DNA of 64,000 nucleotides from Candidatus Woesearchaeota archaeon. GTDB taxonomy: Archaea; Nanobdellota; Nanobdellia; Woesearchaeales; GW2011-AR4. The stretch covers positions 64,365 through 128,364 of the forward strand of contig JACPIE010000040.1 of NCBI GenBank assembly GCA_016188245.1, given 5' to 3'. Below, piece after piece: positions 55,697 to 56,571 of this stretch (position 1 is the first letter of the stretch; each line of letters starts with the position of its first letter). Made by a program: the position numbers and the translations under genes. Under the pieces are notes generated by a model that ran no database searches, was not told where the DNA came from, and was given only the letters and a program-made list of their open reading frames with translations.

Positions 55697-55846
55697 CTTT
55701 TGGTTGCCACTGTTCCAAATCAAGTGGAACGCGAGTGAGCTTCGTTTTTGCGAATTCGCTCACAACTCACTGTGGATTTTAGTTTTGTTGAATCAGCTTT
55801 TCAATGCTGATTCTTATTTTTTGAATTTTTGTGTGATTTTCAAAAG

Positions 55847-56026
55847 TGGGCCGGACGAGACATGCGTGGCTTCGAGACACGCTCGCGTGCCATTTCGGAC
55901 TCGCGACCACCTGATTAAAAGTTTCACCAATGAACTGCCTGAAATTTTTCCAGACTCGGTTCAACACAGGTGCTCTTTCCTGCATGCAAGTTAAGGCTTG
56001 CAGGTACCAGGCTGAGCTACCGGCCC
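55847..56026 (-). tRNA. tRNA-Lys(UUU)-like gene, 180 nt, apparently with three introns (D-loop, anticodon stem, T-loop)
   Basis: GGGCCGG-TA-GCTC-AGCCTGGTA-[about 27 nt hairpin]-A-GAGC-A-CCTG-[44 nt]-A-CTTTTAA-TCAGG-TGGTC-GCGAG-TCCGAA-[33 nt]-T-CTCGT-CCGGCCC-A. Perfect 7-bp acceptor stem. The T-loop is non-canonical at position 55 under this model. Confidence 0.65.
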
Positions 56027-56039
56027 ATGAGCATAAAAG

Positions 56040-56206
56040 CGCCCTGGTCGGGACTTTCAAGCGAAACCTTTGCAGGCTGCAATTTTTGAACCCGAGTCGG
56101 AGCCGTTTTGCGGCATTATTCATGCCACGACAGGGCTCCATGATGGTTCCTGCAGCAATAATTGTTTATGGCCTTTTTATGCTGATCCAGGCTACACTAC
56201 CAGGGC
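56040..56206 (-). tRNA. tRNA-Asp(GUC)-like gene, 167 nt, apparently with three introns (D/anticodon junction, canonical 37/38, T-loop 59/60)
   Basis: GCCCTGG-TA-GTGT-AGCCTGGATCA-GCAT-[about 39 nt]-GAGCC-CTGTCG-[22 nt]-C-GGCTC-CGAC-TCGGG-TTCAAA-[31 nt]-T-CCCGA-CCAGGGC-G. All stems are Watson-Crick or G-U; discriminator is G. Confidence 0.7.
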
Positions 56207-56571
56207 AAATAGCCGGTAAAAAGGTATAGGAACCCCACATTAGCAAAATTGACAATGAAATCATAGTCTTTTGTCTAAAGAAGGATTATTTCCCATCATA
56301 AATGGGAGACTAAAGTTATTTATAAAGCTTTTGGAATCTGATATATGAAATTCAAAAGAGCCCGAAAATTCATAGAATTTGCATGGTTGCGGATTTTTTT
56401 GATTGCTTAAATGGGGTTTATACTCTGCAGCTTGCTGCGATATTTTAACTCAATTTGAGGCTTAAAAATCCCCACAGTTTGCTGTGATTGGGATTTTAAT
56501 TTTTCTAGGGTTTTATTACTAATCAGACTACAAGGAAAAAAATTTAAAAACATCAAAGAATTTCAAAGATT

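Follow-up and report, generated by a model that had tools for sequence, protein, structure and literature searches.

Two adjacent Woesearchaeota tRNA genes, each with three bulge-helix-bulge introns, and their orthologues

A 64,000-nucleotide (nt) stretch of a Candidatus Woesearchaeota genome (contig JACPIE010000040.1 of assembly GCA_016188245.1, positions 64,365 to 128,364; hereafter the window) very probably carries two functional, co-oriented genes for tRNA-Asp(GUC) and tRNA-Lys(UUU), each of which is interrupted by three short introns of the archaeal bulge-helix-bulge (BHB) type. The coordinates of these genes, the BHB geometry of their exon-intron junctions, the conservation of their exons and the covariation of their stems are directly observed. 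The genes lie immediately upstream of rpoH and a split rpoB gene, and RpoB'' of the window is 71-93% identical to that of 80 species-representative genomes labelled Woesearchaeota, Nanoarchaeia or Nanoarchaeota, which identifies the host as a DPANN archaeon. An Asp-Lys pair is present upstream of rpoH in about 74 of the 80 related loci (numbered with the prefix L below), with zero to three introns per gene. A first-pass annotation, made from the letters of this DNA alone, had proposed two tandem, functional-looking tRNA genes with three introns each, mostly at non-canonical positions, and this core reading is borne out by the tRNA calls made on the spliced sequences, by the BHB motifs and by the orthologues.

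Detection and structure of the genes

In unspliced form the two genes escape routine searches, as the first-pass annotation had thought possible for standard tRNA finders. ARAGORN made no tRNA call in the whole 64-kb window in its default, intron or lowered-threshold modes, and no Rfam family reached its gathering score on the unspliced window sequence, the tRNA family RF00005 (29 bits) included. At E<=10, Rfam returned just three weak snoRNA-like matches nearby (E 0.15-6) and no RF00005 match, so that no Rfam covariance model assigns the region to a different RNA family at threshold. Once the inserts were removed in silico, ARAGORN called tRNA-Asp(gtc) and tRNA-Lys(ttt).

The exon junctions could be defined independently of any splice motif because some orthologues at the same syntenic site are uninterrupted (Lys in L027, L047, L061 and L054; Asp in L044 and L076). 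The intronless genes tested were called both by ARAGORN and by RF00005 (72-73 and 54 bits), while multi-intron orthologues were missed by ARAGORN (L001-L003, L007, L020, L022) and by Rfam (L007, L020). When aligned to these uninterrupted genes with splicing allowed, each window gene shows three introns (Table 1). The mature products would be a 75-nt tRNA-Asp, GCCCTGGTAGTGTAGCCTGGACCATCATGGAGCCCTGTCGCGGCTCCGACTCGGGTTCAAATCCCGACCAGGGCG, and a 74-nt tRNA-Lys, GGGCCGGTAGCTCAGCCTGGTAGAGCACCTGACTTTTAATCAGGTGGTCGCGAGTCCGAATCTCGTCCGGCCCA, the latter with C55 in its T-loop. Neither gene encodes the terminal CCA, and CTTTT follows each. The gene ends, strand, anticodons and 13-nt spacer are exactly those of the first-pass annotation, which also placed correctly all three Lys insertions (D-loop, 29 nt; 30/31, 44 nt; 59/60, 33 nt) and two of the Asp insertions (37/38, 22 nt; 59/60, 31 nt); the remaining Asp insertion is considered below. 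In each gene the four exons follow one another in order within a single stretch (167 nt in Asp, 180 nt in Lys), which rules out split or permuted tRNA genes.

Table 1. Coordinates, in window positions, of the tRNA-Asp and tRNA-Lys genes, their exons and introns, and the upstream promoter-like element.
Feature	Position	Strand	Description	Basis
tRNA-Asp(GUC) gene	56040..56206	minus	167 nt, 4 exons and 3 introns	spliced alignment to intronless orthologues; ARAGORN on spliced product
Asp exon 1	56186..56206	minus	acceptor 5' strand, D-stem 5' strand, D-loop up to A20	
Asp intron 1	56147..56185	minus	39 nt, gene nt 22-60, D-loop 20/20a	
Asp exon 2	56128..56146	minus	D-loop end, D-stem 3' strand TCAT, G26, anticodon stem 5' strand, loop up to G37	
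Asp intron 2	56106..56127	minus	22 nt, canonical 37/38	
Asp exon 3	56085..56105	minus	C38, anticodon stem 3' strand, variable loop, T-stem 5' strand, T-loop 54-59	
Asp intron 3	56054..56084	minus	31 nt, T-loop 59/60	
Asp exon 4	56040..56053	minus	T60, T-stem 3' strand, acceptor 3' strand, discriminator G	
Asp-Lys spacer	56027..56039	minus	13 nt, CTTTTATGCTCAT	
tRNA-Lys(UUU) gene	55847..56026	minus	180 nt, 4 exons and 3 introns	spliced alignment to intronless orthologues; ARAGORN on spliced product
Lys exon 1	56006..56026	minus	acceptor 5' strand, D-stem 5' strand, D-loop up to T20	
Lys intron 1	55977..56005	minus	29 nt, D-loop 20/21	
Lys exon 2	55967..55976	minus	10 nt: A21, D-stem 3' strand GAGC, A26, CCTG of anticodon stem	
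Lys intron 2	55923..55966	minus	44 nt, anticodon stem 30/31	
Lys exon 3	55894..55922	minus	A31, anticodon loop CUUUUAA, anticodon stem 3' strand, variable loop, T-stem 5' strand, T-loop TCCGAA	
Lys intron 3	55861..55893	minus	33 nt, T-loop 59/60	
Lys exon 4	55847..55860	minus	T60, T-stem 3' strand, acceptor 3' strand, discriminator A; then CTTTTG	
TATA-like box	56317..56327	minus	CTTTATAAATA; BRE-like (B recognition element) CCAAAAG upstream	sequence kept in about 20 related loci

That the region encodes some other structured RNA or a protein, its tRNA-like pieces being coincidental, is barely conceivable. Mechanically called open reading frames of 99-161 amino acids do overlap it on both strands, and the weak snoRNA-like matches lie nearby; against this, no Rfam family reaches threshold, the orthologues carry insertions and deletions of arbitrary length, not multiples of three, exactly between conserved tRNA segments, and uninterrupted orthologues in the same syntenic location are genuine tRNA genes.

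The two genes are the only tRNA genes recovered from the window. A scan of its whole length for a T-arm plus acceptor stem produced ten further candidates, none of which was accepted as a tRNA (six were inspected, all AT-rich and most overlapping coding open reading frames), and a template-free splice-and-fold scan found no other tRNA in the 64 kb. Applied to the related loci, the splice-and-fold scan re-found 76 Asp and 78 Lys genes; its calls with very long 'introns' (Ser-aga, Ser-cga, Phe-aaa, and Val-cac at 81 nt) were discarded as false positives.

Intron number varies widely among the orthologues, whose lengths range from 73 to 316 nt for Asp and from 74 to 259 nt for Lys. In the 74 pairs, Lys genes with 0, 1, 2 and 3 introns number 4, 15, 34 and 21 (mean about 2.0), and the corresponding Asp genes number 2, 26, 34 and 12-13 (mean about 1.8). 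Six loci, the window included, have three introns in both genes. An apparent fourth intron in the L015 Asp gene, called by dynamic programming (DP), proved on inspection by hand to be an artefact in which one D-loop intron had been split in two. Two tandem multi-intron tRNA genes had been thought unusual for a DPANN-like genome; among these pairs they are the common state. The position of the Lys D-loop intron depends on the clade, being 19/20 in 33 genes (helix GCCT/GGGC) or 20/21 in 12, the window among them (CCTG/CAGG). The Lys intron at 30/31 (27 genes, mostly in the close clade) and that at 37/38 (27 genes, all outside it) never occur together.

The other tRNA genes in the related loci mostly have introns as well (12 of 12 Tyr, three of four Pro, and a single His). 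The tRNA-Tyr(GUA) genes lie upstream of the Asp-Lys pair in L040, L047-L049, L054, L056, L063, L065, L070, L071, L073 and L077, with introns of about 27-57 nt that are at or near 37/38 in 11 of the 12; four of these genes have a second intron, located in the T-loop in three and in the 5' half in L040. Some of the related loci come from third-party annotation (TPA) assemblies titled 'uncultured Methanosarcinales archaeon' (L001, L003, L006, L008 and others), in which RpoB'' is about 90% identical to that of Woesearchaeota and the same intron-laden locus is present; these records look mislabelled.

Splice motifs at the six intron sites

All six junction pairs defined from the orthologues coincide with a BHB motif or a recognised relaxed form of it, with the central helix (H) paired at four of four positions in four introns and at three of four in two. 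Four of the motifs also have a strong outer helix (h), formed by the T-stem, by the anticodon stem or, at Lys 30/31, by pairing between the D-arm and the anticodon loop. The first-pass annotation had left the motif at its proposed junctions to be checked; at the six final junctions, intron shuffles match the motif in only 0-2% of trials per intron.

Asp intron 1 has a relaxed (HBh') motif, consisting of the central helix CCTG/CAGG (H 4/4), the bulges GA^T and AA^C, with the caret at the cleavage site, and the 5-bp intron helix (h') CAGCA/TGCTG; the predicted exon join is GCCTGGA-CCATCATG. This D-loop site is used in 21 orthologues. Twenty orthologues besides the window gene have it with the same helix, followed by a 3' exon that starts with C(A/T)ATCATG. 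Asp intron 2 has a complete hBHBh' motif with a C32·A mismatch in its central helix (H 3/4, h 7, h' 5) and the intron hairpin GGCAT/ATGCC, and 44 orthologues have an intron at this site. In Asp intron 3 the T-stem serves as the outer helix (h 5) of a motif with the central helix TTCA/TGAA (H 4/4) and the bulges AA^A and AG^T; an intron is present here in 63 orthologues, in which 250 of 252 central-helix cells are paired.

For Asp intron 1 the first-pass annotation gave the right length but the wrong position, setting the 39-nt insertion at gene nt 30-68, after the D-stem and before the anticodon stem, with GCAT as the 3' strand of the D-stem, whereas the actual D-loop site lies 8 nt upstream. 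We consider the earlier placement highly improbable. It also yields a 75-nt product that ARAGORN calls as tRNA-Asp (a 76-nt variant was tested), and GCAT is the exonic D-stem strand in a few orthologues (L005, L018, L021, L030 and L045), but its junctions carry no BHB, with a single pair of four in the central helix and neither an outer nor an intron helix, while the H 4/4 and h' 5 of the D-loop placement were matched by 0 of 5000 shuffles. Moreover, the 3' D-stem strand is TCAT in most orthologues, in the nearest relatives and in the intronless genes, and the 20 orthologues with the same D-loop intron use the same CCTG/CAGG helix. The GCAT strand is part of the intron's own helix, and the D-loop placement is the one adopted here.

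The first seven nucleotides of Asp intron 1 (56179-56185, TCAGCAT) resemble the 3' half of the D-arm, and TCAGCATG is exonic in some orthologues. This mimicry permits a second, BHB-less drawing of the cloverleaf, which misled the first-pass annotation. A duplication of the D-arm 3' half was considered as its source and rejected, as only CAGC is kept among the orthologous introns, where the intron helix needs it; the likeness is largely coincidence.

In tRNA-Lys, intron 1 again has the relaxed HBh' form, with the central helix CCTG/CAGG (H 4/4), the bulges GT^A and AA^A and, by hand, an intron helix of 8 bp with one mismatch; an intron is found at this site in 12 orthologues, with the central helix fully paired (4/4) in all. 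Lys intron 2 has the central helix CACC/GGTG (H 4/4, h 5) and the bulges TG^T and AA^A, with the predicted exon join CACCTG-ACTTTTAA. Its outer helix, AAGAG/CTTTT, joins part of the D-arm to the anticodon loop, in a fold that cannot coexist with the cloverleaf. The 30/31 intron is shared by 27 orthologues, in which 108 of 108 central-helix cells are paired. Lys intron 3 has a complete hBHBh' motif in which the T-stem is the outer helix (h 5), TGGC/GCCA the intron helix (h' 4) and TCCG/CGCA the central helix, with a C55·C mismatch (H 3/4); the predicted join is TCCGAA-TCTCGT. An intron occupies the Lys 59/60 site in 46 orthologues, where the intron base facing position 55 is mostly G when the exon has C, and A or G when the exon has U.

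A template-free scan was made for the BHB geometry, defined as a 3-nt bulge on either side of a 4-bp helix and a cut behind the second nucleotide of each bulge. It ranked the ortholog-defined junctions first in five introns; only that in the Lys D-loop had to be entered by hand, and was then confirmed. When the ortholog-defined junctions were held fixed and each intron was shuffled 5000 times, the observed BHB score was reached in 0, 31 and 76 trials for Asp introns 1, 2 and 3, and in 99, 23 and 36 trials for Lys introns 1, 2 and 3. Across the orthologues, 91-100% of central-helix cells are paired at every recurrent intron site, compared with only 25-75% in controls in which the partner strand was slid by 1-3 nt. 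The helices also show compensatory variants, from CACC/GGTG to CATC/GATG at Lys 30/31 in L014, from CCTG/CAGG to CTTG/CAAG in the Asp D-loop of L010, and between C55:G and U55:A at Lys 59/60.

Conservation of the spliced products and the C55 tRNA-Lys

The exons of these genes are constrained in a way that the introns are not. Twenty-two other species have exactly the same mature Lys sequence as the window (100% identity), with RpoB'' just 87-93% identical and same-site introns that are 35-76% identical and differ in length, and among close relatives the exons in general are 93-100% identical, versus 19-80% for orthologous introns of differing lengths. In the cloverleaves of the spliced orthologues, double changes occur in nine of 21 stem pairs for Lys and in seven of 21 for Asp, with 99% and 96% of cells paired. 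These figures come from two sets of spliced orthologues, one of 37 and the other of 53 distinct sequences. Judged from these comparisons of DNA, the pattern fits purifying selection on the spliced product, and not pseudogenes or a protein-coding frame.

Position 55 is a near-invariant U in tRNA. In the window's tRNA-Lys it is C (at about 55897), and the first-pass annotation had seen in this a hint that the gene may be decaying or be spliced differently; its conservation throughout the clade, including genes without a T-loop intron, speaks against both. The T-loop TCCGAAT is found in at least 24 species genomes, again including genes that lack the T-loop intron, and in most intron-bearing members of the clade the intron base opposite C55 is G. 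The Lys genes with C55 are those of L001-L025, L028, L037 and L041, more distant relatives having TTCGAAT; one Asp orthologue (L052) also has C55. The C55 tRNA-Lys could work without pseudouridine-55 or could be a site of C-to-U editing.

It is very unlikely that one or both genes are decaying pseudogenes, with the Lys gene disabled by C55 and working copies elsewhere in the genome. The replacement of a near-universal U is the kind of change that such decay might leave, and the window, in which no other tRNA was found, covers only 64 kb of the genome. Yet the Lys mature sequence, C55 included, is identical in 22 species whose same-site introns have diverged, C55 occurs in clade members without the T-loop intron and is faced by G in most of those with it, the stems covary, and the insertions always keep BHB geometry. 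Both genes are therefore best regarded as functional.

Several points weigh against this interpretation of the two genes as functional and spliced at three sites each. Besides C55 itself in the tRNA-Lys, two of the six motifs are relaxed, with an outer helix of only 0-1 bp in the strict scan of the D-loop motifs, and the 4-bp helix has one mismatch in two motifs. The refinement of BHB positions in the orthologues, over +/-10 nt, counted the BHB in its own score, so that the pairing percentages there are somewhat inflated, although the slid controls are not likewise affected, nor is the window shuffle test. Neither EndA nor RtcB was found in the 64-kb window or in the 80 related loci, with an M. 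jannaschii sequence as the phmmer query for EndA. Finally, we infer expression, splicing and circular introns, and likewise the enzyme, the order of cuts and co-transcription, from the DNA.

Proposed processing, significance and comparison with known systems

Both genes would be transcribed, possibly into a single precursor whose promoter is the conserved TATA box some 110 nt upstream. This box is the sole element of its kind seen by eye upstream of the pair and may drive a longer precursor, and the 13-nt Asp-Lys spacer is too short to leave room for a promoter. Local folding of the precursor would bring each exon-intron pair into two 3-nt bulges around a 4-bp helix, the tRNA splicing endonuclease EndA would cut each strand after the second bulge nucleotide, and an RtcB-type ligase would join the exons. 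Trimming of the ends by RNase P and RNase Z, and then CCA addition, needed because CCA is not encoded, would give the 75-nt and 74-nt tRNAs. The relaxed D-loop motifs and the non-cloverleaf fold at Lys 30/31 imply that the enzyme must tolerate non-canonical substrates, and the alpha4 EndA with an L3 loop described from DPANN archaea (PMC5829648) is a candidate.

The TATA-like box belongs to a conserved unit (about 56218-56327, minus strand) that precedes tRNA-Asp in about 20 relatives. It comprises a strong BRE/TATA sequence, CC[AG][AC]AA[GC]CTTTATAAATAAC, and then a roughly 90-nt block that contains an invariant AAUCCUUCUUUAG, a 3' GAGGGAUU able to pair with AAUCCUUCUUUAG, RUGAUGA-like and UGAUU motifs, and a T-run at its end, 10-45 nt before the tRNA. 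The unit, which has no Rfam match, may be a small RNA, possibly C/D-box-like, that is co-transcribed with the tRNAs. Other flanking repeats are less widely shared. A hairpin-like repeat of about 40 nt (TTGAACGCGAGAATGCTC...CGCATTCA) occurs in the Asp-Lys spacers of L002, L004 (two copies), L005 and L006 and is absent from the window. About 25 nt past tRNA-Lys the window has a perfect 8-bp hairpin, GAATCAGC-ATTGAAAA-GCTGATTC (55802-55826, minus strand), and a second inverted repeat, GTGAGC...GCTCAC, precedes rpoH; neither is kept in the relatives.

Because routine tRNA finders miss genes of this kind, DPANN genomes can seem to lack essential tRNAs, which feeds claims of extreme genome reduction and host dependence. 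The two genes give a concrete picture of such missing tRNAs and of a way to recover them. Identical exons with zero to three introns at a handful of recurrent sites constitute a natural data set on the gain, loss and movement of BHB introns, and the orthologue series could help to define what the DPANN splicing endonuclease recognises. The conserved C55 of the tRNA-Lys is a small but real oddity of tRNA structure.

Up to three BHB introns per gene, at non-canonical positions, are established for Thermoproteales (PMC4033280, PMC8450103). According to the work of Sugahara (2007/2008) and Fujishima (2010) as cited in these two papers, genes of Pyrobaculum, Thermofilum and Caldivirga likewise have no more than three short introns with BHB or relaxed-BHB motifs in the D-loop, in the anticodon stem, at 37/38 and in the T-loop, some of the motifs form only in non-cloverleaf folds, and ordinary tRNA finders miss the genes. 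Unlike these hyperthermophilic crenarchaea, the window's host belongs to Woesearchaeota, and its nearest relatives are mostly groundwater and sediment metagenome genomes; moreover, the thermoproteal (alpha-beta)2 EndA with its crenarchaeal loop is not expected in such a host.

Closer in lineage is ARMAN-2 (Micrarchaeota), also DPANN, for which the sections of PMC3239211 (Fujishima 2011) used here describe 59/60 introns, with both hBH and strict BHB motifs, in pre-tRNA-Cys and, together with a 53/54 intron, in tRNA-Pro. ARMAN-2 differs in belonging to another phylum-level lineage and in having, according to the same sections, a three-unit epsilon2 EndA with an L2 loop, and genes with three introns, or with introns at 30/31 or in the D-loop, are not among the examples given there. 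The pre-tRNA-Glu(UUC) of Methanopyrus kandleri (PMC5829648) likewise combines a relaxed HBh' D-loop intron with a 37/38 intron in one gene; however, it has two introns, and its host is a euryarchaeon with an (alpha-beta)2 EndA that lacks a specific loop and cuts the D-loop intron poorly.

The alpha4 EndA with an L3 loop was associated by Kaneta et al. (2018; PMC5829648) in several DPANN lineages with markedly more disrupted tRNA genes, including multi-intron ones, and incomplete DPANN tRNA sets were considered in that study to point to undetected disrupted genes. The window genes are of the kind reported there as missed. The survey covered one Woesearchaeota genome, alongside other DPANN, with tRNAscan-SE 2.0 and presented it in a summary figure, without a locus-level description or a cross-species comparison. 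As multi-intron tRNA genes are already known from Thermoproteales, ARMAN and DPANN archaea, those of the window are a new, well-resolved example of a known gene structure, while, among the published descriptions that we found, none appears to include the cross-species census or the clade-wide C55.

The density of introns in these loci, about 1.8-2.0 per Asp or Lys gene across 74 species, compares with the 0.84 introns per tRNA gene reported for Thermoproteales (PMC8450103). We tentatively propose, as a reading that stops just short of being probable, that Woesearchaeota are a second, independent hot spot of tRNA introns, at least as dense as that of Thermoproteales, with a clade of C55 tRNAs besides. 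This proposal includes fast gain, loss and site-switching of introns (19/20 versus 20/21; 30/31 versus 37/38) among species with identical mature tRNAs. It would also mean that a cytoplasmic elongator tRNA-Lys(UUU) with C55 functions without pseudouridine-55 or is edited from C to U, and that the lineage is served, presumably, by an alpha4-type endonuclease, an enzyme once thought strict.

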